Positions 3,221 to 43,897 of a DNA stretch of 64,000 nt are shown here, in pieces. The stretch lies in the IMG/VR virus record IMGVR_UViG_3300016657_000126, positions 88,885-152,884 of that record, one strand, 5' to 3'. The notes under the pieces are model-generated. The model did no database searches and was not told where the DNA came from. It saw nothing but the letters and a program-made list of their open reading frames with translations. How positions within the stretch are numbered: the stretch's first letter is position 1; each line of letters starts with the position of its first letter. The position numbers and the translations under genes are program-made. The DNA is from a virus.

Positions 3221-5751
3221 CAGCCGGTGAGAGCGGAGTGGCTAGCCTGCCCGAACAGTTGCGACTGCGCAATGCTTCCGAGCAGGCGGGCGATCTCGCC
3301 GCCGATGCCGCCGCGGTCTGAGAAGGGCAGCTCGTGGTTGATGCCGAGTTGCGGGCGCGAAAACCCGCCGCGCATGCCGAGATTCTGCATCGTGACGTCG
3401 AAGTCGGGGTTCGCGCTTGGGTATGTCGCGTTCTGGGCGAACAGCCGCCGGCCGGCGTCATCCTGCTGACCGAGCACGCGCTTCAGTCGAGGATCGTCGG
3501 AGCCGGAAATCTCGTAGGGGCGGAGCTCGTCCCATCCAGCCGGAGCCCCGACACCTTGGAGCACAGATTGACCAGCGCCGAAGCGCGCCAATCCACCCAG
3601 CAGGCCCGGGCGAGAGAGCACGGGAGCAGCCCAGCGGGTGCCGAGGCCGGTGACCAGGGAACCTCCGCCAAATGCCAGCCCGGTCACGAACGGCGAGGCG
3701 GCGCTGGCCCATGCGCCCGCGGTTCGCTTCGAGGCGTCAACGAGACCACTACCATCCCCGTCGCGGATGGCGTCGCCCATGTCCATCATACCCATACTGG
3801 TCCTGGCGATTGAGCGAAGACCGTTCTCTCCGACGCCGGCCGCCCACTTCAGGGGGTTCCAACCGCCGAGATCCGCGTTGACGGCGCGATTGATGAGGCT
3901 GCCGCTGCCGTCGACGCCGTCAGCGGTGACGTAGGTGGAGCCAGGGCGCCCATGCGCCCACTCCTTCAGCGCGTCCCACTCGAAACCCGCGGGGTCGGTG
4001 GGAGCCTGCTGCTGGAAAAATTTGCGGCGACCGAGATCGTCGACGAACACGCGATTTCCCGCGCTGTTCACACCGACGATTCCTTGGCTGGTGCGCTGCA
4101 CCGTGTAGCCGGCACCCTGAAGACGTGCGTGCTCTTTCTGCAGGTGCTCAGGGATCGCAGGAGTCGGAGCCTGCGCAGGAGCCGGAGCCTGCGCTGGTGC
4201 GGCTGGAGCTTGCGGCACGGGAGTAGGAGTGGGAGTCGCCGGAGTTTGAGGCTTGGGCGATTCGAGCGTGGAAGGGGCCCACACGGGCGTGGCGCCGGTG
4301 CCGGCGCTGGGCTTACCGTCGGCGGCGCGCTTGGAAAGCGATCCGACGACCTTCTGGGTCTGCTTGACCAGGTAGCTCATTGCGGGCGACGGCTTGGCCG
4401 GCTTCACCGGCGCGGGCGCGGCAGGCGCCGGCGTGGGAGTCGCGGCGATCTCCATCTGCTTCTGCTGAAGCTGCGCCTGCTGTTGCTGCTGCTGCATGGC
4501 CATCTCGGCCTGCTGTTGCTGCTGCATCACCTGCTGCTGTTGTTTGGCGGCATCGGACTCGGCGACCTGCTGATCCCGGGCTTGGCGGAGATCGGAAGCA
4601 TAGTTCGAAAAAGTGATCGGCTGGCCGGCGGGGCGCTCGCGGGCGGGGATGAAGCCGGCGGACTTCATGACGATATCCGCGTCCTGCACCAGCGGATGAA
4701 GGCGCCCGTCGCGGCCACGGCGATAAGTCCGGAGACGGCTCTCCTCGCGCATCTGCCGCTTGATGTCGCGCCCGAGCGCATCGGTGACCGTGTCCGGAAG
4801 ATCGACGAGCTGTTCCATCGGGAGCTCGACTTCCGTGAACGTGCCATCCGGCCGCGGGAGGCGCACGCGCACGCGCCCCTTGTCCTGGGGTTTGCGCAGA
4901 GAACGCATGCCCTTGTAAAGCAGGAGGCCGAGCGCGCCCAAACCCAACCCAGCACCGCCCGCCACGAACATGTCTTTCTTGGAGATGACGGGGGCGGGCT
5001 GGCGCTGCGCGATGTCCTTGGTCGCGGCGTCCATAAGCGGGCCGGCTTTACTGAGGGGCTCGAGAGCTTGCACAGCCAAGTCCTTCGTCGGAGCTAGCGC
5101 CACCAAACCCGCGCCCTGCAGCCAGTCACCCGCATGAATTTTTGCTCCGGCGCCGGCGCCAAGCGCCGCGTTCACCACACCCATGCCGATACGCTGCGGA
5201 GAGATGTGGTCGTAGTCCGGACCGTGGACGATGAAGTCGGTGCCGGCGGCTCCGGCCAACGCGCCAACGAGCGGAGCTGCCCAGCTGGCGGTGCTCGCTG
5301 ACTTGTGCTGCACGCGCACGCCGAGGGAGGCCGCGAGCGCCATGGAAGGTTTGTTGCTCGGAACGATGAATGCGCGCACCTCATCGACGCCGGCGGCCTT
5401 CTCGCGGATGAGAGACGCGACAGCCTTCTTCGCGATACCGCAGCAGCGATGCTCCGGCAGCACTCCGATGGCGTAGTAGCCGATTCGGCGACCCTGCTCT
5501 TCGCGCTCTTGCCAGCCGGCGAATCCGAACGCCTTCTTCGTGTGCGCGTCCCGGATCAGGTAGGCGCCTCCATCGAGCATGTCGGTGTTCACGCCGTAGG
5601 GCCAGAACTGCGGCGTCTCCTCGTAGATGCGCTGCATGATGGCCTCGCACTCGGCGCGGGGATTGGAGTCGATGGCGGGCGACGCGCCGCTGGCTTGCTT
5701 GACCAACTCGGCCCGAAAAGGGTGATAGGTAAAAAAGAAGTCCGGCAGCAT
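3220..5751 (-). CDS. Putative virion/internal head protein with N-terminal GNAT acetyltransferase domain
   Basis: GNAT motif A (AIGVLPEHRCCGIAKKAV) and motif B (NKPSMALAASLG). These are followed by Gly/Ala-rich hydrophobic segments, poly-Q and Pro-rich linkers, and several K-x-A motifs. The virion role is inferred. Confidence 0.65.
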   Translation of the reverse strand: MLPDFFFTYHPFRAELVKQASGASPAIDSNPRAECEAIMQRIYEETPQFWPYGVNTDMLDGGAYLIRDAHTKKAFGFAGWQEREEQGRRIGYYAIGVLPEHRCCGIAKKAVASLIREKAAGVDEVRAFIVPSNKPSMALAASLGVRVQHKSASTASWAAPLVGALAGAAGTDFIVHGPDYDHISPQRIGMGVVNAALGAGAGAKIHAGDWLQGAGLVALAPTKDLAVQALEPLSKAGPLMDAATKDIAQRQPAPVISKKDMFVAGGAGLGLGALGLLLYKGMRSLRKPQDKGRVRVRLPRPDGTFTEVELPMEQLVDLPDTVTDALGRDIKRQMREESRLRTYRRGRDGRLHPLVQDADIVMKSAGFIPARERPAGQPITFSNYASDLRQARDQQVAESDAAKQQQQVMQQQQQAEMAMQQQQQQAQLQQKQMEIAATPTPAPAAPAPVKPAKPSPAMSYLVKQTQKVVGSLSKRAADGKPSAGTGATPVWAPSTLESPKPQTPATPTPTPVPQAPAAPAQAPAPAQAPTPAIPEHLQKEHARLQGAGYTVQRTSQGIVGVNSAGNRVFVDDLGRRKFFQQQAPTDPAGFEWDALKEWAHGRPGSTYVTADGVDGSGSLINRAVNADLGGWNPLKWAAGVGENGLRSIARTSMGMMDMGDAIRDGDGSGLVDASKRTAGAWASAASPFVTGLAFGGGSLVTGLGTRWAAPVLSRPGLLGGLARFGAGQSVLQGVGAPAGWDELRPYEISGSDDPRLKRVLGQQDDAGRRLFAQNATYPSANPDFDVTMQNLGMRGGFSRPQLGINHELPFSDRGGIGGEIARLLGSIAQSQLFGQASHSALTG

Positions 5752-5764
5752 GGCGTATAGGTAA

Positions 5765-5792
5765 GACGGTCGCGGATTTGGCCGCGACCGTC
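5765..5792. promoter_or_regulatory. 11-bp perfect inverted repeat just upstream of the 5751 start, overlapping a minus-strand TTGACG hexamer
   Basis: gacggtcgcgg-atttgg-ccgcgaccgtc. Confidence 0.5.
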
Positions 5793-5807
5793 AACCGTTG
5801 CACTGGT

Positions 5808-6650
5808 TCAGGCGGGGACAGCCAAGTCCGCGAGCGACTTGACCACCGTCCGCTTAGCCGCCGGCGCGGGATGAGCCGACTTCGCCAGCACACTCACGTC
5901 GGGGGCCGCGGAGACCGCGATACCGGGTTGCCAGCTGAGTAGCCAGTCCGGCACCGCGACGACCTTGGCGCTGCCGGCGGATTCCTGCGCACGGCGGCGG
6001 GCGCGACTGGACATGCGCGCCAGGCGCTCCTCGGCCGCGGCGTCGAGATTGTGCGCAGCCTCGGCACGGGCGGCGGCGAGCTTGGCCTGAAGATCGCGGC
6101 GCTCCTGAGCCAAGCGAATGACGCGGGCGCGCGACTCCTCGGCTGCCATGATCGCCGCGTGCTCCTGCTCAAGCACGCGTTCGAGGCGGGCTTCGCGCTC
6201 GGCCCGGACCTTTTCAATCCACTGCGCGTGGTGGATCTTCATCATCTCCTGGTAGTCCTCCACGCTCATGTCGCGGTAGTTCGAGCACGAGATGGTGGGC
6301 GCTTCCCAGCAAAACGAAAGCCGCTCTCCGACCGAGCGAAACAGCCCGAGCTGATCGTCGTGAATGTTCTCCGCGAGCGGAGGCGGAGCGAAAGAGACAT
6401 CCGAGCCCGCTTCGGAGACGACCTCAAAGCGGGTGCCGGTGGGGCCCTGATGGATCAGCGCGATCCGGTTGTCGGGGTTGCGGCGGAGGTTGAGCGGCGC
6501 GCTGCCCGGGTAGCTGACACCGAGAAACTGCACGGCGCTGGAGTCGGGCAGAAGCTTGCCGCCGATTCGGACCAGTTGGCGAATCTGGAAGGCCACGGCG
6601 GAAACCGTGATGTTACCGAAGGAGTAACCTTGGACGTTGCGAGGAATCAT
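5808..6650 (-). CDS. Hypothetical protein with C-terminal coiled coil
   Basis: 280 aa ORF that fits the gene tiling, with an E/R/A-rich helical C-terminal half. Confidence 0.75.
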   Translation of the reverse strand: MIPRNVQGYSFGNITVSAVAFQIRQLVRIGGKLLPDSSAVQFLGVSYPGSAPLNLRRNPDNRIALIHQGPTGTRFEVVSEAGSDVSFAPPPLAENIHDDQLGLFRSVGERLSFCWEAPTISCSNYRDMSVEDYQEMMKIHHAQWIEKVRAEREARLERVLEQEHAAIMAAEESRARVIRLAQERRDLQAKLAAARAEAAHNLDAAAEERLARMSSRARRRAQESAGSAKVVAVPDWLLSWQPGIAVSAAPDVSVLAKSAHPAPAAKRTVVKSLADLAVPA

Positions 6651-33339: not shown

Positions 33340-33763
33340 CGATGGAAGTAAGTTTAACGGCTACAAATACACGGCTCTCGAATCCAGCCATCATCAAAGC
33401 GCACTCGCGCTGAGAAGCCGAAATGTTCCGGCAAAACGAGCCGGCATCGTCCGTGTCTACGAACTCGCGAACCACGAAAGCTCCGTCGGCGCCGGGTATG
33501 GCGGCGTCGAAGAATATCATCGGAGTTCCGATCTCCATCTCCTCGGCAAAGAACCGAATGGCTTTTTGCTCGCTGCGTTTCGCTAGCGCGAACGCGGGGA
33601 TGACGTAGACCTTGTCGAGAATTACCCGGCAGTTGCTGGGTTCGAAGCCTAGCTTCCAACGTGCCTGGCTGAGGATCTCCGTCACCGAGTCGGAACGCGG
33701 GACGCGGAACGCCGAAGCCAGAGATATGGCCGCGGCGGTTTCGGATAATTTGGGACGCTTCAT
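33332..33763 (-). CDS. Hypothetical protein
   Basis: 143 aa, ATGA overlap with the RecA-like gene. Confidence 0.6.
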   Translation of the reverse strand: MKRPKLSETAAAISLASAFRVPRSDSVTEILSQARWKLGFEPSNCRVILDKVYVIPAFALAKRSEQKAIRFFAEEMEIGTPMIFFDAAIPGADGAFVVREFVDTDDAGSFCRNISASQRECALMMAGFESRVFVAVKLTSIVA

Positions 33764-35229
33764 TCGAGAGCGCTGGGGTCTGCGGCGGCGACGAGCGCCG
33801 GCTGAATTCGTAGTCCGGCGGTCTGTACCGCCTCCGCCTTCTTGATGTCTTCTGGAAAATACTCCGCGTAACCTTCGATACGCAGAAACTTTCCAGTCGA
33901 TATGACCGCTTCGCGATTGTTATGAAATGCAACGGCTATGTCGTGCGCGGATCCGCTGAACACGCCGAGCTCCTTCGAAGTGTAGCGCCGATTTTCCACA
34001 ACAAGACCGAGCAGTTTGTTGTCGAGCAGCAGATCGCAGAGAGCGAAGTCGAAGTCCATGGCGCTCTCTTGAAAGACGTCGGTGTCTCCGGTCATCTCGC
34101 TGCGCAGCACGGCTTGGATACGGCGACCTTCCGGGCCAAAGGACTGCTTGGCGGCCCGCATGATGATCTTATTTCCGATGACCGTCTCACCCACCTTGTA
34201 TTGGCCGGCGCGCACCATCGTGAGCTGCCAAGCTGCGAGTTGATTGAACGCGCGCCCTCCGCGGGTGGTTTTGTTGTAGAGCGCGGACGATTCGGCGTCC
34301 ATCGGTTTGCCGCGCCCGGACATGTCGATCTTCTCCGTCTGATGATTGCAGCAGATCAAAATGACATTGTTAGTGGACAGGAACGCCGGCAGGCGGCGCG
34401 CAAAGGCGTGCGCCCACTTGGCGTGCAGCAAATTCGACCCCTCGCCCGTAGCGGTGTAGTCTTCCTTTGCCAGCGATTCGGCGCTCTTGCCGTAGCCGTA
34501 GAAGCCTTCGGCCTCGGCATCCGACATCAGGCGACTCCAGACGTCGCACACGATGACGATGGGCGTGTCGATGGGAACGCAGATACCTGTCTTGTCCTTC
34601 TTGTTGTTCAGGCGTCCGCGGTAGGCGTCGACAGCATCGATCATGACCTGCTCGAATTCACGCAGAGAGAAGGCCTGCGTCCAGAGAACTTGGTCGGCCA
34701 GTTTCTCGCTGACTTCGCGATTGTTGGAGAGACAGCGCCGCGCGCGCTCGACCGGCATGGGCTTGTTTTCGGTCTCGATGTAGACTCCGGGGCAGCCTTG
34801 GCGCATCGCAGCGCCCATGATCTCGAAGCACGTGGTCGTCTTGCCCGTGGCCTCCTGCGCCGTGAGCGTGCCCATGGTGGCTTTCGGCATGCCGATCGTG
34901 CCGTAGAGATACTGCAGGGCGAAGTGGTGAAACGGCAGGAACGACGTGCGCACTTCACTGAGTGTTCGGAAATTGCTCGGGCGATTTTTCCGACGCTCGC
35001 CCAGGGCGCGAAGCACGCGAACCGCCGCGCCGGCACCATCCGCTTTTTCCTTGTCGGCTATCTGAAACGAGAACTGCGGGTCGAAGATGGGCGTCAACCC
35101 GGTGGCCTTGATGAGCGTCTCGATAGGCTGAAGGGCGGGATCGTTTGGCATCCCGGCGACCGGCGCCTCCGCGGTCGCAGCCGACTTCGTCGAGGTCTTT
35201 TTTGTGGGGGACTTTTTGGCTTTGGCCAT
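33760..35229 (-). CDS. Divergent RecA/UvsX-like recombinase
   Basis: GMPKAT, Walker A AQEATGKTT, YIETE, Walker B IVIVCD, CNHQTEKI, TRGGRAF. Confidence 0.85.
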   Translation of the reverse strand: MAKAKKSPTKKTSTKSAATAEAPVAGMPNDPALQPIETLIKATGLTPIFDPQFSFQIADKEKADGAGAAVRVLRALGERRKNRPSNFRTLSEVRTSFLPFHHFALQYLYGTIGMPKATMGTLTAQEATGKTTTCFEIMGAAMRQGCPGVYIETENKPMPVERARRCLSNNREVSEKLADQVLWTQAFSLREFEQVMIDAVDAYRGRLNNKKDKTGICVPIDTPIVIVCDVWSRLMSDAEAEGFYGYGKSAESLAKEDYTATGEGSNLLHAKWAHAFARRLPAFLSTNNVILICCNHQTEKIDMSGRGKPMDAESSALYNKTTRGGRAFNQLAAWQLTMVRAGQYKVGETVIGNKIIMRAAKQSFGPEGRRIQAVLRSEMTGDTDVFQESAMDFDFALCDLLLDNKLLGLVVENRRYTSKELGVFSGSAHDIAVAFHNNREAVISTGKFLRIEGYAEYFPEDIKKAEAVQTAGLRIQPALVAAADPSALE

Positions 35230-35232
35230 AGT

Positions 35233-35266
35233 GAAAGAAGAAGGGGTGAGGTTACCCTCACCCCTT
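35233..35266 (-). terminator. Intrinsic terminator
   Basis: aaggggtgagg-ttac-cctcacccctt with a minus-strand CTTCTTTC tail. Confidence 0.7.
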
Positions 35267-35309
35267 GAGTGTGTCCAACGATTACGTCCTACTCAAACGC
35301 GCTGATTTA

Positions 35310-37445
35310 TCAGCGATTTCCCGCGCGCTTGAGCAATTCGCCCATGCGGTGGATCTGGTTGGTATCCAGAGACTGGCCAGTCTTCGCGGCCTGGTCATTG
35401 AACGCGAGCAGCTGCTGGAGTTCGCTGTTCTCCTCGGGGCTCAACGGAGCGCCAGTCGCGCCGGGAGCGATGGTGGCGTTCTGCTGGATGGGCGGCTGCT
35501 GTTGGGGCGCCTGCTGCACAGCGGGCTGGATGGTCTGCTGCTGGGCGCCCTGAGCTACCGCGGCGTAGCCGGGCATCGCGGTGATGGCGCTCCACGGGAG
35601 GCTGTTGTCGCTGGGGGCGAACACCGCCGCGGGGTTAGTGCGCGCGAAGTTAACCGCATCGGCGATGGTCATGGGCGTTTGCATGACCGCCCCGTTGACC
35701 GCGGCGTAGATCATCACCGCGGGCGGCTGCTGCACGGGCGGCTGCTGCACGGGCGGCTGCTGCACGGGCGGCTGGTAGGCCTGCTGGACCGGCGCCTGTT
35801 GGATGGGGGCCTGCTGCGCGGGGGCGCCGAAGCCAGCGGGAGCGCCGCCACCGAAGCCCGCGGGAGCTCCGCCACCGAAACCGGCAGGAGCACCGGCAGG
35901 AGCACCGAAGCCAGCGGGAGCACCGGCAGGAGCACCGCCGAAGCCGCCAGCGGGAGCGCCGCCACCGAAGCCCGCGGGAGCACCGGCAGGAGCACCGAAG
36001 CCAGCGGGAGCACCGGCAGGAGCACCGCCGAAGCCAGCAGGCGCGCCAGCGGGAGCGCCGCCGAAGCCGCCCGCGGGAGCTCCGCCACCGAAACCGGCAG
36101 GGGCACCGCCGCCGAAGCCAGCGGGAGCACCGGCAGGAGCACCGAAGCCAGCGGGAGCACCGCCACCGAAGCCCGCGGGAGCTCCGCCACCGAAACCGGC
36201 AGGGGCACCGCCGCCGAAGCCAGCAGGCGCGCCAGCGGGAGCGCCGCCGAAGCCGCCAGCGGGAGCGCCGCCACCGAAGCCCGCGGGAGCTCCGCCACCG
36301 AAGCCAGCGGGAGCGCCGGTGGGGGCACCACCGAAGCCGCCAGCGGGCGCACCGCCGAAGCCACCGACAGGAGCGGCGCCCGCGGGGGCACCAAAACCGG
36401 CGGGAGTGTTGCCAAAGCCGCCCGCGGCAGCGCCGACAGCGGCACCAGGAATAGCGCCAGGCGCGCCGGTCATGCCGGTGCCTCCGCGCACATTGGCGCG
36501 GTGGCCGCAGGCGATGTGGATCAGCTCAAGCGGAAAGGCGCCGTCGCCGACCAACATGTCGACGATTTCCTGATACGACGGGATGCGCCAGATATCGAGC
36601 GAGCCGAGGTCGTAGCGATTGGCAAGCGCCTCCGGACCGACGGGAAACACGCGCTCGGTGCCGAGACAATTCTCGCGCTCGGTGAAGTGGAAGCCGAGGT
36701 AGGGAAATCCTCCGCTGTTGGGCGCGGGCGGAACGATTTTGATGCAGGTGAGCAAGCCGGTGTTCGGGTGCGTCACGTCGCCGAGCAGGAACTGTTGGAA
36801 GTTCGGGTCGCGCGGCTGCTGACCGTAGGAGGTGGGCCAGCTGAGCGTCTCCTTCAGCGCACCGAGCGACTGCGCCGAAGTCACCAACAGACCCTGCGTG
36901 AGTTGACCCTTGATTTGGGCGACTGCGTTCATCGCCGCCTTGACCTTGGGACGGCCGGGAAGCGGAACGATCTCCTTACCCGGACGGCGGGGATCCGCCT
37001 GCTTTTTGGTGAGACCGGCGAAGCGCGCATCGAGGCGAGCGGTGCGGGCGAGGTCCATGACCGGGCAAGGAGCCTGATCGGCGGTGATGCCGGCGAGGGT
37101 GAGCTGCTTGGGCGAGGTGAAGCTCATGCCGGAACGGCCGAGCCACTGATAGACGTAGCCGAGCACGAACCAGGAGGTAAAGGCCGGCGTGCCACCTTTG
37201 ACCTCGTTGTCCACGCGCCCGCTGTGCATGTCGCGGTAGGGGGCGAACGAGGTTTTGCGCGCCGCGTCGTGCGGGCTCATGTTGTCGTCCAGCGCCGGAA
37301 GGATGCGCGCCCACATGGGCTCCTTCTCGGTGGGGAAGATGGCGCGAACACCATCCTTGAAATACCGACCGGACGAATCGAATTCGTCGTCGACGACAGC
37401 AGCGGAACCAGCGGCAATGCGGTTGTTATTGGGAGCAGTAGACAT
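35310..37445 (-). CDS. Folded N-terminal domain plus long GFG/APAG low-complexity region and GYF_2-like domain (possible SSB/recombination mediator)
   Basis: 711 aa ORF between DNA polymerase and the RecA-like gene. The function is inferred from position only. Confidence 0.75.
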   Translation of the reverse strand: MSTAPNNNRIAAGSAAVVDDEFDSSGRYFKDGVRAIFPTEKEPMWARILPALDDNMSPHDAARKTSFAPYRDMHSGRVDNEVKGGTPAFTSWFVLGYVYQWLGRSGMSFTSPKQLTLAGITADQAPCPVMDLARTARLDARFAGLTKKQADPRRPGKEIVPLPGRPKVKAAMNAVAQIKGQLTQGLLVTSAQSLGALKETLSWPTSYGQQPRDPNFQQFLLGDVTHPNTGLLTCIKIVPPAPNSGGFPYLGFHFTERENCLGTERVFPVGPEALANRYDLGSLDIWRIPSYQEIVDMLVGDGAFPLELIHIACGHRANVRGGTGMTGAPGAIPGAAVGAAAGGFGNTPAGFGAPAGAAPVGGFGGAPAGGFGGAPTGAPAGFGGGAPAGFGGGAPAGGFGGAPAGAPAGFGGGAPAGFGGGAPAGFGGGAPAGFGAPAGAPAGFGGGAPAGFGGGAPAGGFGGAPAGAPAGFGGAPAGAPAGFGAPAGAPAGFGGGAPAGGFGGAPAGAPAGFGAPAGAPAGFGGGAPAGFGGGAPAGFGAPAQQAPIQQAPVQQAYQPPVQQPPVQQPPVQQPPAVMIYAAVNGAVMQTPMTIADAVNFARTNPAAVFAPSDNSLPWSAITAMPGYAAVAQGAQQQTIQPAVQQAPQQQPPIQQNATIAPGATGAPLSPEENSELQQLLAFNDQAAKTGQSLDTNQIHRMGELLKRAGNR
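35719..36430 (-). repeat. Coding tandem repeats: about 22 (A)PAG(G)FG(GG) units plus QQPPV units
   Basis: Plus strand shows repeated ccgaagccagcgggagc / gcaccggcaggagc and ggcggctgctgcacg units. Confidence 0.9.
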
Positions 37446-37462
37446 GATGAGAAATTAAGATT

Positions 37463-37687
37463 TTAAGTGGGATTCTGACTTTTGCGTTCGGACAAAACCT
37501 GGCGCGCTTTTGTTAGGTTGGCGCGACCGGCCGTGATTTTTGCCTGCGAGCGAGAACGCCCGCCTTTGGCTCCGCTGAGACTCAGGAAATTGCGAGTTTC
37601 TTGGGACAGCTTTGGACCTGCCGACTTTTTCCCTGAACGAGAACGGTCGGCGGCGCTCTCGCGTTTACGGGTTTGAAGTTTAGCCAC
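37463..37687 (-). CDS. Small basic protein
   Basis: 74 aa, K/R-rich, GAKGGRSRS.AK..A.RAN motif. Confidence 0.6.
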   Translation of the reverse strand: MAKLQTRKRESAADRSRSGKKSAGPKLSQETRNFLSLSGAKGGRSRSQAKITAGRANLTKARQVLSERKSQNPT

Positions 37688-37700
37688 GCTGACGAGTTCA

Positions 37701-37731
37701 ACAAGCCGCTTGTTATAGTCAAGCGGCTTGT
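37701..37731. promoter_or_regulatory. 12-bp inverted repeat over the polymerase stop codon
   Basis: acaagccgcttg-ttatagt-caagcggcttgt; contains minus-strand TTGACT. Confidence 0.5.
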
Positions 37732-40700
37732 CGGAATTCTTCCTTCAACCAGACCGGATCGTTCGCCCAAGTCGGGTCGTCGAGCAGCTTGAGCTGGTCC
37801 TTCGATGGGCGCGACGACCAGGCGAGATTGAACTCGCCGGACGCCGGATAGAACCAGACGCGCCCATGGTCGAACCACGTGTTCTTCTCCGTCATGTAGA
37901 TCTCGTGCAGCCTAGAGACAAGGAAGCGCTCCTCCACCGGGCAGATGGACACACACGAGTCGTAGAGGATGGTCATCAGCCTGGCGTGCATACCGCGCCG
38001 ACGATACTCGTCCACGAGGTTGATGCCGGCGCGCGCTGAAGTCGCAGCTACGGACTCTTGGCACGGGAAGTTGCGCGCCACGCGTCCCATCGCCGACAGC
38101 TGGGCGCGGCGATCGCGCCCGCTGATGGAACCACCGAGCATACCGTAACCGGCGAAGTGGCGCCGGCGACCAGACTGCGCGACGAGGAAACCCGGATGCT
38201 CAGGCGCGCGCTGCAGATCCTCTTCCAGCCATCGAGTAGCCACCGGCTCGCGCTTTGCGATCGCGCCGAGGATCTTCGAGCCGGTGCCCTCCGGCGGCTT
38301 GAATCCGGCGTCGGACTCGATCTTGCGCTCAAGGGTGGAGTCTACCGCGCCATAGGCGGTGTTGGAGACCAGCACGCCGTTCGCGGTGAAGCGATGCCGC
38401 GGACCGGCGTTCACCAGATCGTAGACCGGCTCCAACGTGAGCTCGAACCCACGGGCACGGAGCTCCGCGATCAGGACATCGCGGGGACGACCTCGGTAGC
38501 CGTTGACGCCGAGTATCGCCGCAGGATTTCCTCCAGCGGCGTTCCCTTGTCGAACAACGCCCTTGCATGCGACGCCGAGCACTGGATTTCCGGGTGGGTG
38601 GCCATGAACTCGCGAACTATTTTGGAGACGTTCGGGCGCGATGCCTTGGTCCTCGCGATTTCGGCGATTTCCGCCGCAGTCTTTCCCTGCTTCAGGAGCT
38701 TGACCAGATAGTTGAACGAGAGAGCCGAGTGCGCAGCGTGCAGACGCCTGGCCTCCGCGTAAGTGTTCTCGGCTTCCGGATTCGCCGACGACTTCTTCCA
38801 CTGAGCCAGGATTTGAGCTTCGGTCCAGCCCCTCCAGACAAGCTTGCGCACCTGAGCCCGAGCGAACCCCACCTCCGGATGCGCCGCCAAGAATGCGTCC
38901 GCCTTCGCGAAATCCGAATTCGCCCGTAGCTGCTCCTTGGTGCGATACTCCCCGGCATTCCACTTCTCCACCAGCTGCTCCTCCGTCAGACCGGAGAAGA
39001 GCAGATTGCGGACTGTCCTGAACGCCAGCTTCACCTCCGGATGCGCCGCAACGAACGCTCGCGTCTTCGCTCCAAATGATCGGATCGAAAGACGCGTGTT
39101 CTCGAGATTGGTCCGACGGTCCACCAGGCGAAGATTGTCCGGCGAGTAAGGGCCGTCGTTGTCGATCCGATCGAAATCCTTCCCCTTGAAGGTCTCGCCC
39201 GGCCACTTGCTGAGCGCCCACGAGATGAAGTGCTCCTTGTCCTGAAACAGCACCTGGATTCCCCGCCCCTTGTAGTTGTAGGAGCTGGCGTGCGTCCACG
39301 TGTTGCAACGCTGCTTCATGGACTGAAACCGCGTGCGAAGCCGATAGCGAATTTCGTCCTTCTTCGGCGCCTGACACGCACAACGAATGCCTTTGCCAGA
39401 TTCCAGATGGTGTAGCCATTTCTGACGCACCACCTCGCAGCGCGGGCAAAATGTCTGCACCGCCAGATTGCCTTTGCTGTTTCGAAACAGCGCCGGCCTC
39501 AGTTGCAAACCCTGCAAGCCGAGCTTGGCCAGCCTCGCTGCCAGTTCGGGCGAGATCGAGACCTGCCAAAGCAGCTTCTCCGAAGAAGACCTCTCTTCCG
39601 TCCATAAGCCAGACACCGTGGTCGACGGTGGCACGGAGTCCTTGGTATTCGATGATGTGCTGTTCACCTTTGCAGATAAGCCCTTCGTGGCGGACCCAGT
39701 CAACTCCGTCCCACAAAAGATCGAAATCTTTAGATACTTCCTTGATTTTCTTTACACCATTGTTTGTTAATACTCCCACATCAGCCGGCAAGCAACTGAA
39801 GTTTCCCACCTTTCCAATGCCGTCGCGGTCCTTCTTCTTGTTGAGATACTCGCGGGGCTTTTCCTGCACCCATTCCGCCAGCGACCAGTGAAGGTCGTGC
39901 TTGGGGTGGCGCAGCTTTCCGTCTTTGCGCAAGAGCTCGTGTTCCTCGACTTTGCGGATCACCTTGCCCTCCTTCATGAGGTGCATGATGGCCTGCGGGT
40001 TTCGATTACCCTCGGGGATGCCGCAGTCAGCGTCGTAACGCAGGCGAACCGGCATCGTCTCCGTCCCTTCCTTAACGAGACCAAACTGAGTGTCCGGCTC
40101 GGTCATGAGCCGGATCAGATTCTCGTCGCCGCTCATGAACGCCTTACCGCGGATCTCGGCCGTGTCATAGTCATACTCGACGATGCACCAGCCCTTCGAT
40201 CCGGGCACTGGAGGAAGGCTGCTGATGTCGACGCACCCGCGGATGGACGGGATGTTCTTACCCACCTTCTCCACGCGGTCGTCGAGTTTCGGATACTGCA
40301 TCGCGCCGACCAGATATTTCTCGAACTTCTCGGGCAGACGGTTGGCTTCCTTCAGTTCGAGCAGCAGCTTTCCGACGCCCTCCGATATGCGCTTGTTGAC
40401 GTAGCTCGGCCAGTTAAGCGTATTCGGTTTCCAGCTACGAGGACGCCCGGTGTCGGTCGTGCTATACTGACAGTGCACGCGTTGATCGCTGCACAGCCAG
40501 AAGTGAAGACCGTTCTCCTTGGTCACCTCGCCTGTCTCTTCGTCGATTTCGGGCTCCTTCAGGAACGCCTTGCTCAGGTTACCGACGGCATTGAGGTTCA
40601 GCAGCTCTCCGATCGTCTCGTGCTTGTCCGCGAGAATCTGCAGCGTCTGCTTGTCGGTGGACGGCGTGAACTCCTTCTGCCTAGCCGGGGTCATGGCCAT

Positions 40701-42452
40701 GACCTTCTCCCACGAAGTTGTCGGCAGGCCCTTCTCTTTGTTGTTGGTCGATTTCACCGGAGTGAGGCCGATCACGTCAAAGAGCCAGCGCCGCATCATC
40801 GGAGCGCTTCGGATGTTGAACCCCGGTGCCTCGCGCATGTGGTGGAAGAACGCCAGCGCCTGGTCCTTCTTTTCAGGCCCGACCAGGTCCAGCAACTTCC
40901 GCTCGGCCTCACCGTGCTTCAGCGCCTCAGGGCTGGTCAGCAGCTGGAGACACTCCAGACCGACGGTGAGCCCACGCATGCCGAACGCCCCCTGCAGGAA
41001 GCGGAGAAACAGCGTGCGCGCCTCGTTCGCCACCCGCTGCTTAAATCGGATGTTCAGCTCCTGCGTGGCGAACGTAAACAGATCACGCAGCTCGTCCATG
41101 CGCTGCACGTTCATCGGAAGTCCGACGATCGCGAAGTTGGTGAACACGTCGCTCACGAACGGGAGGAACGTGTTCATGAAGTAGGCCGCGGTGCCTTCGG
41201 CGACCATCCTGCGCAGCAAATACGGCCATGCGCGGTAAGGCGTCAGCACGTCGTAGCAGCCGTAGGGCTCAATCAGTTTGTCGGGCACGTAACCGAAGCC
41301 GTCGTCCTCGCTCTGGCGGTTAGCCTTATACCAGAGCATCAGCTCGATGTCGTAGCGACCAAACGGCGTGTAGCGGATAGACAACTCTTCCAAACCGCCG
41401 CCGACGTCTTCGTCGACTACCTGCTGACCGAACTCAGTGTCGAACTCCGTGCGTTGATACCACTCCAGATCCAGGAATTTATCCATCCACGGGTAGTCCG
41501 CGGAGATGTGATGACCTAGATAGCGCGTCTGCTTTTTATTCAACACGCGGCCGAGAATTTGTCCGCAAGTCTTGTAAGGCGCGTTCATCACATACTCCGC
41601 GCGCTCATTCATGAACTGAAAGAAGAACGCGCGCGTCGGTGTAGGCGCGGCTTGGAAACTCCTCAGAAGACCATCCACGTGACTGCGGCCTTTCCACTCA
41701 CAGTCCACGGAGAACAGGCTGTATTTCTTTTCCTCCCACTCACGCACAACATTCTCCATCTGCTCCGTGTTGCGCACGAAGGTCATCTCGGAGGGAATCA
41801 CGTCAACGACCACGCCGTTGATTTGATCCCACATCCGTTTCACCTGCTTCATGTCCACATTGAAGCGCTCGATATACTCCGGCTTGAACACCGGCAGCAT
41901 GATGTCGGGCATCAGGTAGACGCGCGCGTTGACTAGCGCCGAGTGAAACCAACCACCCTGCAAATCGCTGATCGACCCCTTCACATCCACCAACACATCG
42001 AACGCCGGCTTTCCAAGGCAGACGATGATCTTCGGCTGGACGCGCTTTATCTCGGCGAGCAACGCCGGGGTTGCCATAGCGATGGCGTCGCGGTCGGGCT
42101 TCTTGCGCTCTTCCTTTGGGAGGAGCCACTTCACCAGGGCCGTGAAGTAGCAGTCGTCCATGTCGATCGCCGCGTTGCGCGCGCAGTCGGTGAGAATGAC
42201 GCCAGACCCACTCTTCAGATAGCGCGGCTTGTCCTCGATGGAAGCTCCGGTGAACGTGCGCTCCCGGTCCATCGCCTCGTCCTCCTGCAGCGACGTCTGG
42301 ATGAACATCACGTCGCTCGGCGTCTTTCCCGCCCCGGCGACAAACAAGACGTCCGACCAGCGGCGCGTGGTCTTTACGTCATGCGGATGTTCCGTGGGTC
42401 TCGGTGTAGCCAAAGCCACCCGAGGTTTGAATGAGCGGCGTTCTTCAAACAT
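37719..42452 (-). CDS. Family A DNA polymerase with N-terminal UDG-like domain and 3'-5' exonuclease, intein-containing
   Basis: UDG-like EIKRVQPKIIVCLGKPAF; Exo SVDCEW, GHHISAD, YGCYD; TDTGRPRSWKPN; motif A YDYDTAEIR; motif B K.GNFS/TAYG split by the intein; RNFPCQ; motif C ILYDS. Confidence 0.93.
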   Translation of the reverse strand: MFEERRSFKPRVALATPRPTEHPHDVKTTRRWSDVLFVAGAGKTPSDVMFIQTSLQEDEAMDRERTFTGASIEDKPRYLKSGSGVILTDCARNAAIDMDDCYFTALVKWLLPKEERKKPDRDAIAMATPALLAEIKRVQPKIIVCLGKPAFDVLVDVKGSISDLQGGWFHSALVNARVYLMPDIMLPVFKPEYIERFNVDMKQVKRMWDQINGVVVDVIPSEMTFVRNTEQMENVVREWEEKKYSLFSVDCEWKGRSHVDGLLRSFQAAPTPTRAFFFQFMNERAEYVMNAPYKTCGQILGRVLNKKQTRYLGHHISADYPWMDKFLDLEWYQRTEFDTEFGQQVVDEDVGGGLEELSIRYTPFGRYDIELMLWYKANRQSEDDGFGYVPDKLIEPYGCYDVLTPYRAWPYLLRRMVAEGTAAYFMNTFLPFVSDVFTNFAIVGLPMNVQRMDELRDLFTFATQELNIRFKQRVANEARTLFLRFLQGAFGMRGLTVGLECLQLLTSPEALKHGEAERKLLDLVGPEKKDQALAFFHHMREAPGFNIRSAPMMRRWLFDVIGLTPVKSTNNKEKGLPTTSWEKVMAMTPARQKEFTPSTDKQTLQILADKHETIGELLNLNAVGNLSKAFLKEPEIDEETGEVTKENGLHFWLCSDQRVHCQYSTTDTGRPRSWKPNTLNWPSYVNKRISEGVGKLLLELKEANRLPEKFEKYLVGAMQYPKLDDRVEKVGKNIPSIRGCVDISSLPPVPGSKGWCIVEYDYDTAEIRGKAFMSGDENLIRLMTEPDTQFGLVKEGTETMPVRLRYDADCGIPEGNRNPQAIMHLMKEGKVIRKVEEHELLRKDGKLRHPKHDLHWSLAEWVQEKPREYLNKKKDRDGIGKVGNFSCLPADVGVLTNNGVKKIKEVSKDFDLLWDGVDWVRHEGLICKGEQHIIEYQGLRATVDHGVWLMDGREVFFGEAALAGLDLARTGSEAGQARLAGFATEAGAVSKQQRQSGGADILPALRGGASEMATPSGIWQRHSLCVSGAEEGRNSLSASHAVSVHEAALQHVDARQLLQLQGAGNPGAVSGQGALHLVGAQQVAGRDLQGEGFRSDRQRRPLLAGQSSPGGPSDQSREHASFDPIIWSEDASVRCGASGGEAGVQDSPQSALLRSDGGAAGGEVECRGVSHQGAATGEFGFREGGRILGGASGGGVRSGSGAQACLEGLDRSSNPGSVEEVVGESGSREHLRGGQASARCALGSLVQLSGQAPEAGKDCGGNRRNREDQGIAPERLQNSSRVHGHPPGNPVLGVACKGVVRQGNAAGGNPAAILGVNGYRGRPRDVLIAELRARGFELTLEPVYDLVNAGPRHRFTANGVLVSNTAYGAVDSTLERKIESDAGFKPPEGTGSKILGAIAKREPVATRWLEEDLQRAPEHPGFLVAQSGRRRHFAGYGMLGGSISGRDRRAQLSAMGRVARNFPCQESVAATSARAGINLVDEYRRRGMHARLMTILYDSCVSICPVEERFLVSRLHEIYMTEKNTWFDHGRVWFYPASGEFNLAWSSRPSKDQLKLLDDPTWANDPVWLKEEFRQAA
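38361..39794 (-). mobile_element. Intein (478 aa) in polymerase motif B
   Basis: Starts CLPADVGVLTNNG, has block B ATVDHGVW and block F VYDLVNAGPRHRFTANG, and ends LVSN followed by T+1. Confidence 0.92.
38471..39703 (-). CDS. HNH-type homing endonuclease nested in the +1 frame inside the intein (start uncertain)
   Basis: CPRC...CAC zinc motif, SMKQRCN, NYKGRGIQV, DRIDNDGPYSPDNLRL...N, then four ~40 aa helical repeats. Confidence 0.85.
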   Translation of the reverse strand: MTGSATKGLSAKVNSTSSNTKDSVPPSTTVSGLWTEERSSSEKLLWQVSISPELAARLAKLGLQGLQLRPALFRNSKGNLAVQTFCPRCEVVRQKWLHHLESGKGIRCACQAPKKDEIRYRLRTRFQSMKQRCNTWTHASSYNYKGRGIQVLFQDKEHFISWALSKWPGETFKGKDFDRIDNDGPYSPDNLRLVDRRTNLENTRLSIRSFGAKTRAFVAAHPEVKLAFRTVRNLLFSGLTEEQLVEKWNAGEYRTKEQLRANSDFAKADAFLAAHPEVGFARAQVRKLVWRGWTEAQILAQWKKSSANPEAENTYAEARRLHAAHSALSFNYLVKLLKQGKTAAEIAEIARTKASRPNVSKIVREFMATHPEIQCSASHARALFDKGTPLEEILRRYSASTATEVVPAMS

Positions 42453-42670: not shown

Positions 42671-43897
42671 TTATTGGATACCGAGGGCAAGATAACGAAG
42701 ATAGGCGATCTCGTTTTTGTCGCACTCGCCCAAGTCCTTTCGATGGGCGGGAGGACGCAGAGAGCGTGTTGCGATGAAGGTGACTGTCTGGCGGAAGTAG
42801 TCTTCGGCGTCGGCACCGCCGGCGTCGTTGTCCATGATCGATACGGCTTCTTGAGCACCCGCCGCTATCAGGCGCGCCTGCTCCGGGCTGACGAACTTAC
42901 CAGTGGCGCCGACCGCCGGCGGTCCGAATTTGGCGGCGTCTAGCGGACCTTCGGTGAGGACAATGCGCCGCACCCAACCAGGGTGACGCGCCGCCATCAT
43001 GTCGTTCCAGCGGAGCGCGGCGTCGTAGCAGAACAGCACTTCGTTGCGCGACATGGCGTCGGCCGAGCGATAGCGGGTTATCCGCTTCCAATCATCTCCA
43101 TAGTCGGGGCGGATTACTTTCGTTTTGTCGGGCCCGGCGTATTCGACAGGCACCCATTCGTGGCGGTAAGGATGCAGGAAGTAGGTGTAGCCCTGGTGCG
43201 CCTGTTGGAGAATACGCGCCTGCCATCCGATGCAGCTACCATGCTGACGCCCGAAAAGAATGAGGCGATTCTGAGGCGTGTCTTTCCATCCATCGGGTCC
43301 CTTGCGGTAGTAGCGCTTCAGCGTGCCCTCGGGTAGTTCGACGTGGCAAAACGAGGCCTCGAGCATGTCGTGCAGGACCGCCAGATCGTAGCCACGATCG
43401 ACAACATACCGGACAGCCGGATGGTCGGCGGGGAGGTCCTTCAAGAAGGTGCACTGTCCGGGCTCGCCGGGAACGCGGCGACCGAGGTGATCGGTGACCA
43501 GCTTCAGCTCGTTGTCGACGGCCGTCACCGACACGACGGACTGCGCGTCCGGAATGCCGCGGCTCTGAATCGGTGGGTAATCCAGGATATCGAGCATCGA
43601 GATCTTTTTACCCGACTTCATACACATGGCGCAGTCGTCGTTATCGTAACTTCCGAGGCGCCCCTCCCACTTGCCGGTGCCGAAATACTTGTCCAAGTTC
43701 ACAGCCCCGTGCATGGAGATGAGTTCCTTGCGCCCGTCCAGCTGCAGACGAAGCGGACTCGGGAAGTAGGCGTGGAGACCGCCAGTTTCCTGGCGTATGC
43801 TCACAGGTCCGTGAATGCGTGAAAGCGCTTCAACGAAACGCAACACCTTTGGGTCGAGCGCAGAGACGCCGGATCCGTATTTGATCGAGACGCTCAT
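42671..43897 (-). CDS. DnaG-like DNA primase (TOPRIM)
   Basis: YVVDRG, NRLIL, IGWQAR, LTEGPLDA, MDNDAGG, KDLGE. Confidence 0.85.
   Translation of the reverse strand: MSVSIKYGSGVSALDPKVLRFVEALSRIHGPVSIRQETGGLHAYFPSPLRLQLDGRKELISMHGAVNLDKYFGTGKWEGRLGSYDNDDCAMCMKSGKKISMLDILDYPPIQSRGIPDAQSVVSVTAVDNELKLVTDHLGRRVPGEPGQCTFLKDLPADHPAVRYVVDRGYDLAVLHDMLEASFCHVELPEGTLKRYYRKGPDGWKDTPQNRLILFGRQHGSCIGWQARILQQAHQGYTYFLHPYRHEWVPVEYAGPDKTKVIRPDYGDDWKRITRYRSADAMSRNEVLFCYDAALRWNDMMAARHPGWVRRIVLTEGPLDAAKFGPPAVGATGKFVSPEQARLIAAGAQEAVSIMDNDAGGADAEDYFRQTVTFIATRSLRPPAHRKDLGECDKNEIAYLRYLALGIQ

Follow-up and report, generated by a model that had tools for sequence, protein, structure and literature searches.

A motif B intein in a phage family A DNA polymerase with a putative HNH-like homing endonuclease gene nested in the +1 reading frame

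INTRODUCTION

Canonical inteins, among them the in-frame HNH inteins credited in later citations to Dalgaard et al. 1997, share several properties with the locus described here, which is a class-1 intein in the family A DNA polymerase gene of an uncultured virus. The locus lies in a 64,000-nucleotide stretch of DNA (positions 88,885 to 152,884 of IMG/VR virus record IMGVR_UViG_3300016657_000126; hereafter the window, in whose coordinates features are given). Like canonical inteins, it has class-1 splicing features, an endonuclease between blocks B and F, and a conserved site in a replication gene. We looked for an in-frame endonuclease domain and found none; unlike in canonical inteins, an HNH-like open reading frame (ORF) occupies the +1 frame, and its product would be a separate polypeptide.

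The concept of an out-of-frame intein endonuclease is already known and no longer new. Inteins of actinobacteriophages carry an endonuclease VII-like gene in frame 3, an antisense LAGLIDADG gene or an antisense VSR-like gene (Gosselin, Arsenault and Gogarten, bioRxiv 10.1101/2025.01.02.630785). As an origin they suggest the invasion of an intein by a free-standing endonuclease gene; HNH endonucleases appear in their survey in frame only. As in those inteins, an intact splicing domain surrounds an out-of-frame endonuclease ORF at our locus, and the read-through of that ORF has no recognizable structure. Unlike the actinobacteriophage cases, the ORF lies in the +1 frame of an intein in motif B of a family A polymerase, its product is not Endo VII-like but an HNH-like protein of the PHROG 3377/374 type with a zinc ribbon and helical repeats, and the family is large and deep, with members in many phage groups.

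An out-of-frame LAGLIDADG endonuclease in the Synechocystis DnaX intein was proposed, according to later citations, by Gorbalenya in 1998; the arrangement was re-examined by the ratio of nonsynonymous to synonymous substitution rates (dN/dS) and called a rarity (Phillips, DeSimone and Gogarten, bioRxiv 10.64898/2026.09.14.751524). The cyanobacterial intein and the one described here have in common two overlapping frames, a dN/dS over the overlap that is reduced when read in the endonuclease frame and elevated when read in the extein frame, a patchy distribution, and the coexistence of mini-intein and empty alleles. They differ in that the DnaX intein has a LAGLIDADG gene as a +2 ORF in a cellular gene for Pol III gamma/tau, whereas ours has an HNH-like gene in a phage Pol I-type gene. 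A third comparison is offered by the ShiLan-type out-of-frame HNH insertions in phage DNA methylase genes (Arsenault, Gosselin and Gogarten 2025, PMC11855218), which likewise have an HNH gene in a shifted frame, a stop-free host frame and a proposed non-ATG (GTG) start. In ShiLan, however, there is no splicing domain and the methylase retains the read-through as a loop, whereas our locus encodes a complete HINT domain that is predicted to excise it. Our text searches of the literature found no paper that describes a family of motif B inteins of family A polymerases in which an HNH-like gene is nested.

RESULTS

Two overlapping reading frames in a polymerase intein

The IMG/VR virus record from which the window comes is 196,897 bp long and is rated complete. 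The host gene (37719..42452, minus strand, as are all polymerase, intein and nested-gene features given below) encodes a family A DNA polymerase by its Pfam and PHROG matches, 1577 aa long including the intein and with 1099 aa of extein. The class-1 intein, recognized from the translation and from empty alleles, spans 478 codons (38361..39794; polymerase codons 887-1364) in motif B. In the +1 frame, the same DNA is open from 38474 to 39751, with a stop codon at 38471-38473; this putative HNH-like homing endonuclease gene, identified by PHROG HNH matches, thus measures 426 codons from stop to stop plus the stop (38471..39751). The ORF as listed begins at a TTG (38471..39703) and encodes 410 aa (P0002). 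A first-pass annotation, made from the letters of the window alone, had claimed that the polymerase frame is open through all 478 intein codons, that the central intein looks out of frame when read in it, and that the +1 frame (38471-39703) encodes an HNH-type endonuclease with no ATG before the peptide SMKQRC. All of this was borne out. The polymerase ORF contained no stops, intein residues 86-431 were predicted to be disordered, the nested product matched two PHROG HNH endonuclease families (phrog_3377, E 7.9e-21; phrog_374, E 5.7e-20), and no ATG preceded SMKQRC.

We asked how often both frames would be open by chance by keeping the HNH protein and its codon usage, shuffling its synonymous codons 20,000 times and counting the stops that arose in the polymerase frame. 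The shuffles gave a mean of 14.0 stops and a minimum of 5, compared to the 0 observed, so that 0 of 20,000 reached zero (P < 5e-5). The third frame, an internal control, had stops throughout, 9 compared to 9.9 expected. Across the other genes of the window (15,114 codons), off-frame stop density was 0.022-0.029 per codon, and the longest other off-frame open run in the window was 264 codons. All 12 of the +1-nested relatives tested also had 0 host-frame stops where 5-22 were expected (P <= 0.0005); free-standing nuclease relatives (n = 11) had an ordinary 11-55 stops in the equivalent frame, and the purge was seen in 0 of the 11. The double openness is not due to chance. The first-pass annotation had warned that high GC3 (G+C at third codon positions) might hold the frame open by chance, which the shuffling test contradicts, and that two compensating indels might mimic the layout, which is ruled out by its presence in 15 other loci and in cultured phages. 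Homologues with both frames open, which it had named as a check, are provided by the 12 relatives tested.

Selection in the two frames of related inteins

Two relatives, L007 and L019, could be aligned without gaps over 4404 nt, and their exteins showed a synonymous divergence (dS) of ~1.5 and a dN/dS ratio (omega) of 0.03-0.05. In the intein core, the differences between them fell on host codon positions in the order 1 > 2 >> 3, which is the order 3 > 1 > 2 in the nested frame. By the Nei-Gojobori method, the proportions of synonymous (pS) and nonsynonymous (pN) differences in the core were 0.41 and 0.06 when read in the +1 frame, for an omega of 0.11, and 0.06 and 0.16 when read in the host frame, for an omega of 2.9. 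Host-frame constraint was back in the C-terminal splicing domain (omega 0.14). When the same aligned core DNA of the window and L003 was translated in either frame, protein identity was 38.6% in the HNH frame vs. 20.1% in the polymerase frame; the corresponding values for L004 were 43.5% and 21.1%.

The polymerase frame encodes a split HINT domain

The intein junctions read GKVGNFS^C, with the intein beginning CLPADVG, and VLVSN^TAYGA. Since the homologues P0004, P0005 and P0009 read GKVGNFS|T[TA]YGA uninterrupted, with nothing between the two halves, 38361..39794 marks the limits of an insertion; intein-free polymerase homologues are 1109-1113 aa long. The N-terminal splicing domain, with blocks A and B, comprises intein residues 1-85 (39540..39794) in the polymerase frame, and its motifs LWDGV.WV and ATVDHGVW were conserved in an alignment of 16 intein homologues. 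Cys1, the N-terminal nucleophile, comes immediately after GKVGNFS, and the TxxH of block B is present as T56-V-D-H59 within ATVDHGVW. The C-terminal splicing domain, with blocks F and G and the terminal Asn followed by Thr at +1, comprises residues 435-478 (38361..38492). Its motif VYDLVNAGPRHRF..G.LVSN was kept across the intein family, and the extein residue after the terminal Asn (VLVSN|T here) was T, S or C across the family. C1, T56, H59, D459 and N478 were invariant in the 16 homologues. The intervening stretch, residues 86-434 (38493..39539), is a stop-free linker in the polymerase frame and appears to be a disordered read-through of the nested gene.

In an AlphaFold2 model of the polymerase-frame intein built with the 16 homologues, residues 1-85 and 435-478 had a predicted local distance difference test score (pLDDT) of 93-98 (93-97 in the C-terminal domain), and residues 86-431 (~346 residues) had a pLDDT of 31-49 and no secondary structure. 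Compared with solved structures, the ordered part matched gp41-1 (Z 15.6, root-mean-square deviation [rmsd] 2.4 over 113 aa), VidaL (Z 15.5) and Mtu RecA (Z 15.3), and all 31 chains with Z >= 8 were inteins or HINT domains. The model indicates that the N- and C-terminal halves of the intein form a split HINT domain. Pfam and NCBIfam sequence models did not flag the intein. We also considered a group I intron as the identity of the insertion; this is ruled out by the open host frame and by the ends forming a HINT domain.

Outside the intein, Pfam identified an N-terminal UDG-like domain (UDG), a 3'-5' exonuclease (DNA_pol_A_exo1) and DNA_pol_A in the polymerase, which also matched phrog_17 DNA polymerase. 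A blastn search of the polymerase gene against cultured phages returned no match.

The nested gene product

A search of 1.84 billion cluster representatives returned 9865 relatives of the nested protein at E <= 1e-3, 21 of them at E < 1e-30. The nested ORF is full length, with residues 3-403 aligning to the 411-aa P0025, and it keeps the columns that are invariant across 11 aligned homologues. In an AlphaFold2 model built with these homologues, pLDDT was 80-95 between residues ~45 and 400; the 40 residues that follow the TTG start were disordered, and the structured part started at residue ~43 (window ~39577). Three parts can be distinguished. A zinc-ribbon-like CxxC...CxC module (39374..39448) has its four cysteines (C86, C89, C108 and C110) invariant in the 11 homologues and is modeled as beta strands with pLDDT >80. 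It is followed by an HNH-like (beta-beta-alpha-metal) core, residues 116-205 (39089..39358), assigned by the PHROG HNH families and a fold match to PacI. The third part consists of four tandem three-helix repeats of ~45-50 aa each (38504..39085; helices 210-397 in the model, pLDDT 80-93), which gave small three-helix-bundle matches to solved structures and are probable DNA-binding modules. There was also a weak Pfam match to HTH_7.

The best match of the nuclease core among solved structures was PacI (3m7k_A; Z 6.1, rmsd 2.9 over 76 aa), in a comparison for which the core was not folded separately; Foldseek gave PacI a probability of 0.38 and the ZRANB3 HNH domain a weak match. The PacI match is consistent with a beta-beta-alpha-metal nuclease and falls short of proof. 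A Foldseek search of the whole 410-aa model against the PDB gave nothing significant, and a profile search of the sequences of solved structures gave only a trivial helical-repeat match. Core residues invariant in the 11 homologues were R125, M129, Q131-C133, H138, Y144, R147-I149, D178, R179, N182, N190, N199 and N202, with H138 and Y144 lying upstream of the D178-R179 pair.

Relatives with the same layout

No close relative turned up when viral contigs were scanned with peptide patterns taken from the single HNH protein or from the N-extein; relatives were recovered only by large protein searches and by an alignment-based scan of such contigs. The nearest intein-bearing polymerase, P0003 on metagenome contig L003, had 37% extein identity and an intein at the same site, and its nested ORF, in the same +1 frame, has an ATG start and 412 codons and encodes an HNH protein 39% identical to that of the window. 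In L004 the arrangement was likewise +1, and the nested gene was shorter, at 268 codons. The alignment-based scan yielded 28 loci. At the 16 closest, the midpoint of the HNH match lay inside a host ORF of 794-2149 aa that is open in the frame one base upstream; at the 12 more distant loci the nuclease gene was free-standing. Nesting in the +1 frame occurred in 15 other PolA loci, from independent assemblies and of varied architecture, and the host ORFs scanned with Pfam (n = 5) were family A polymerases of differing architecture. Motif B was the intein site in all loci, with junctions NFS^C...SN^[TS]AYGA, NFGL^C...SN^CYGM and similar.

The layout also occurs in cultured phages. The Jerseyvirus Salmonella phage vB-SeS-01 (OP494211.1; L001:1439-4537) has a 247-codon, ATG-started HNH ORF (L001:2872-3615) in the +2 frame of the intein; its polymerase is annotated as "intein-containing DNA polymerase precursor," and ~37 Salmonella phage records match. 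In Streptococcus phage Javan113 (L035:1305-4187) and Shewanella phage SFCi1 (L036:528-3830), tblastn placed the HNH match in the +1 frame of the polymerase coding sequence (CDS). In the records of these phages that we opened (Jerseyvirus, Javan113 and SFCi1), the polymerase CDS was the only annotation over the nested stretch.

A few loci departed from the common layout. In L014 and L018 (match 5001-6632, 1.6 kb), the HNH frame was open for only 26 codons at the midpoint, inside a host ORF of 1861 aa; these could be interrupted or duplicated nested genes, and we set both aside from the nested set. In metagenome contig L034 (2197-5948, P0033), the zinc-ribbon part is absent and the HNH core is in frame with the N-extein and N-intein, ending at the HNH stop, and the C-splicing domain and C-extein run on in another frame (5055-5948). 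Breakage or decay of the allele, an error of assembly, or a move towards a split arrangement could each account for it.

Distribution and history of the intein

The polymerases closest to that of the window (56-63% extein identity) had no intein; distant ones (37-43%) had one, with splicing domains 58-73% identical to those of the window. The nearest splicing-domain relative (73% identical) was a 146-aa mini-intein at the exact insertion site of the window intein (L005:5515-5952, P0007). It has no nuclease gene, probably because the nested ORF was deleted. For L007 and L019, intein DNA identity (87.6%) was higher than that of the exteins (81-83%), and identity in the upstream flank climbed from 84% over 300 nt to 89% over 150 nt and 92% over 60 nt. 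A homing element that is acquired, spreads and later loses its nuclease would be expected to leave such patterns. Along the aligned segments (L007:2165-6568 and L019:2129-6532), the exteins differed by 17-19% and the 5' half of the intein was nearly identical (N-splicing pS 0.11). From these alignments, the pair looks like a case of recent homing with one-sided co-conversion and a recombination breakpoint within the intein.

In a tree of the HNH proteins, all 16 nested genes fell on one side of a single branch (Shimodaira-Hasegawa-like approximate likelihood ratio test, 98), with the Jerseyvirus +2 form sister to the 15 +1 forms. A tree of the splicing domains gave the same groups. The two trees agree, and therefore both parts evolve as a unit. 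This would fit one old capture followed by co-divergence, a reading that is not firm given that the sample of free-standing genes is small and distant. In addition, among the polymerase homologues, P0008 and P0012 have a different intein whose start in motif B precedes the site used here by one residue (GNF^CIAEDE), and P0012 and P0010 have a LAGLIDADG_2 Pfam match; motif B appears to be a hotspot for several intein lineages.

Adjoining the polymerase gene, two ORFs of >700 codons each overlap on opposite strands (35265-37466 on the plus strand and 35310-37445 on the minus strand). The stretch that holds them has 70-80% G+C and an extreme AT skew.

DISCUSSION

We consider it very likely that the locus is a motif B class-1 intein with a complete HNH-like homing endonuclease gene in the +1 frame between its splicing halves. 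The anatomy of the locus, the purge of stops, the frame-specific purifying selection in relatives, the predicted folds and the patchy distribution of the intein all support this. The proposal of the first-pass annotation that the endonuclease is a separate product of a second frame, sheltered by the intein, is thus supported at the level of sequence, with its translation step conjectural; the novelty that it implied was overstated, as out-of-frame intein endonucleases are already in the literature. Under the favored interpretation, ribosomes on the polymerase message would read frame 0 through the nested gene and produce the disordered linker of ~346 residues, and the split HINT domain would fold and excise the entire insert so that motif B is restored. 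The free endonuclease would come from a second initiation event, probably at a low level, at a GTG or TTG within the sequence that codes for the N-splicing domain; it could cut intein-free polymerase alleles of co-infecting phages, repair then copying the intein in (homing). Selection would act on frame 0 in the splicing halves and on frame +1 in the middle, and against frame-0 stops throughout.

A number of observations weigh against this interpretation. The HNH label comes from the PHROG family names and a modest fold match to PacI; no Pfam or NCBIfam model covers the window nuclease, and Pfam HNH_3 matched one of 11 members of the nested-protein family, weakly (E 0.16). HNH_3-type proteins carry Asp-His in their consensus, and all members of this family have Asp-Arg (D178-R179) at the expected position. 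In the intein, the penultimate residue is Ser (SN) and not the usual His, and is S, H or A in relatives; a penultimate His (the HN of block G) is common in inteins and not obligatory. Our dN/dS values were taken from relatives only, the synonymous sites of the window being saturated with respect to its nearest intein-bearing relatives. Splicing, nuclease activity and the target of the nuclease are predictions from sequence and structural models. Finally, the nested frame of the window has no ATG before M129, the Met of SMKQRC, which lies past the invariant zinc ribbon, and the Shine-Dalgarno sequences of its GTG and TTG candidates are weak or badly spaced. Shine-Dalgarno strength cannot be used to pick the nested start in any case, because most genes of the window phage lack such a motif.

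The candidate start codons, TTG 39703, GTG 39667, GTG 39634 and GTG 39616 (39614..39703), all lie within the N-splicing-domain coding region and upstream of the first structured residue (~39577), and an AAGGA is found 4 nt upstream of GTG 39634. Most long ORFs in the window, including that of the polymerase, have no Shine-Dalgarno-like motif upstream (e.g., 37719-42452, 42671-43897 and 33760-35229); phage and host probably rely on Shine-Dalgarno-independent initiation. The relatives point to a start around block B. An ATG stands there in L003, and also in L009, L013 and L020, where it has GAGGT 8 nt ahead of it and follows a stop by one or two codons; the ATG of L015 and L017 has (A)AGGAG at a distance of 9 nt. 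In all five relatives with a Shine-Dalgarno sequence, the ATG sits at the 5' end of the nested ORF. Judging from the sequence, GTG 39634 and TTG 39703 are the likeliest starts in the window, with GTG 39634 loosely favored by analogy, as its position is nearest to the ATGs of the relatives. We infer separate translation from such comparisons, and expression is the weakest link of our interpretation.

Could the endonuclease be truly in frame, with two compensating indels, either sequencing errors or fresh mutations, shifting the middle of the intein? An in-frame domain freshly frameshifted in this way would show many polymerase-frame stops, because ~14 are expected, and none was found. It is true that in-frame HNH inteins are documented in the cited literature, that the window belongs to an uncultured metagenomic virus record, and that the HNH core of L034 is in frame with the N-intein after a deletion. 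However, the layout and the stop purge recurred in 12 of the 12 +1-nested loci tested, which come from independent assemblies, and the layout was present in cultured phages as well; the frame-specific dN/dS, moreover, reflects long-term selection in the shifted frame. We regard the indel explanation as exceedingly improbable. Alternatively, the nested ORF may be a silent passenger or decaying relic in this phage, late in a homing cycle, such that the intein splices and the endonuclease is unmade or inactive. The non-ATG start would suit a relic, the mini-intein of L005 shows that nuclease loss happens in the nearest splicing-domain relative, and a broken variant exists in L034. This explanation is nevertheless highly unlikely for the window, whose ORF is full length, has no stop or frameshift in 426 codons, keeps the invariant columns and encodes a product predicted to fold with high confidence.

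Another possibility concerns only how the nested protein is made. Programmed frameshifting, or re-initiation coupled to polymerase translation, could yield it as a fixed fraction of polymerase synthesis, perhaps as a fusion of N-extein, N-intein and HNH protein that is later cleaved. The ATG and Shine-Dalgarno sequences of L009, L013, L020, L015 and L017 are classic independent starts and speak against this, as does the Jerseyvirus +2 frame, which would require another shift. A frameshift fusion would also be without the C-splicing domain, and no conserved slippery or stall site was seen on inspection of the junction. On the other hand, the window lacks an ATG or a good Shine-Dalgarno sequence, the 40 residues after the TTG are disordered in the model, and in many members the +1 frame runs on without a stop for ~60 codons ahead of the structured part, reaching the N-splicing domain. 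On balance, frameshift expression is less economical than independent initiation, and we think it quite improbable.

Beyond the question of mechanism, we entertain as unlikely, yet worth stating, the idea that the overlap, far from being a transitional accident, is an old and stable design of one clade of family A polymerase motif B inteins in which nuclease synthesis is set by ribosome traffic on the message of the essential polymerase gene. The link may lie in weak internal non-ATG initiation or in frameshift or re-initiation coupling, so that nuclease dose may be tuned independently of splicing, and the host frame may persist as a disordered tether free of stops. Were a programmed +1 event to prove responsible for the coupling, it would constitute a new class of recoding tied to a selfish element.

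For the window itself, the main consequence of our interpretation is a correction of the annotation. The nested gene escapes gene callers: even the cultured Salmonella Jerseyviruses, Streptococcus Javan prophages and Shewanella SFCi1 have no annotation for it, and these are tractable phages in which translation of the hidden gene and homing could be tested. More generally, the overlap is clean and unusually long, with two proteins encoded in two frames over ~1.25 kb of a single strand and a separate selection regime for each, and it supports the view that inteins gain endonucleases when free-standing homing genes move in.

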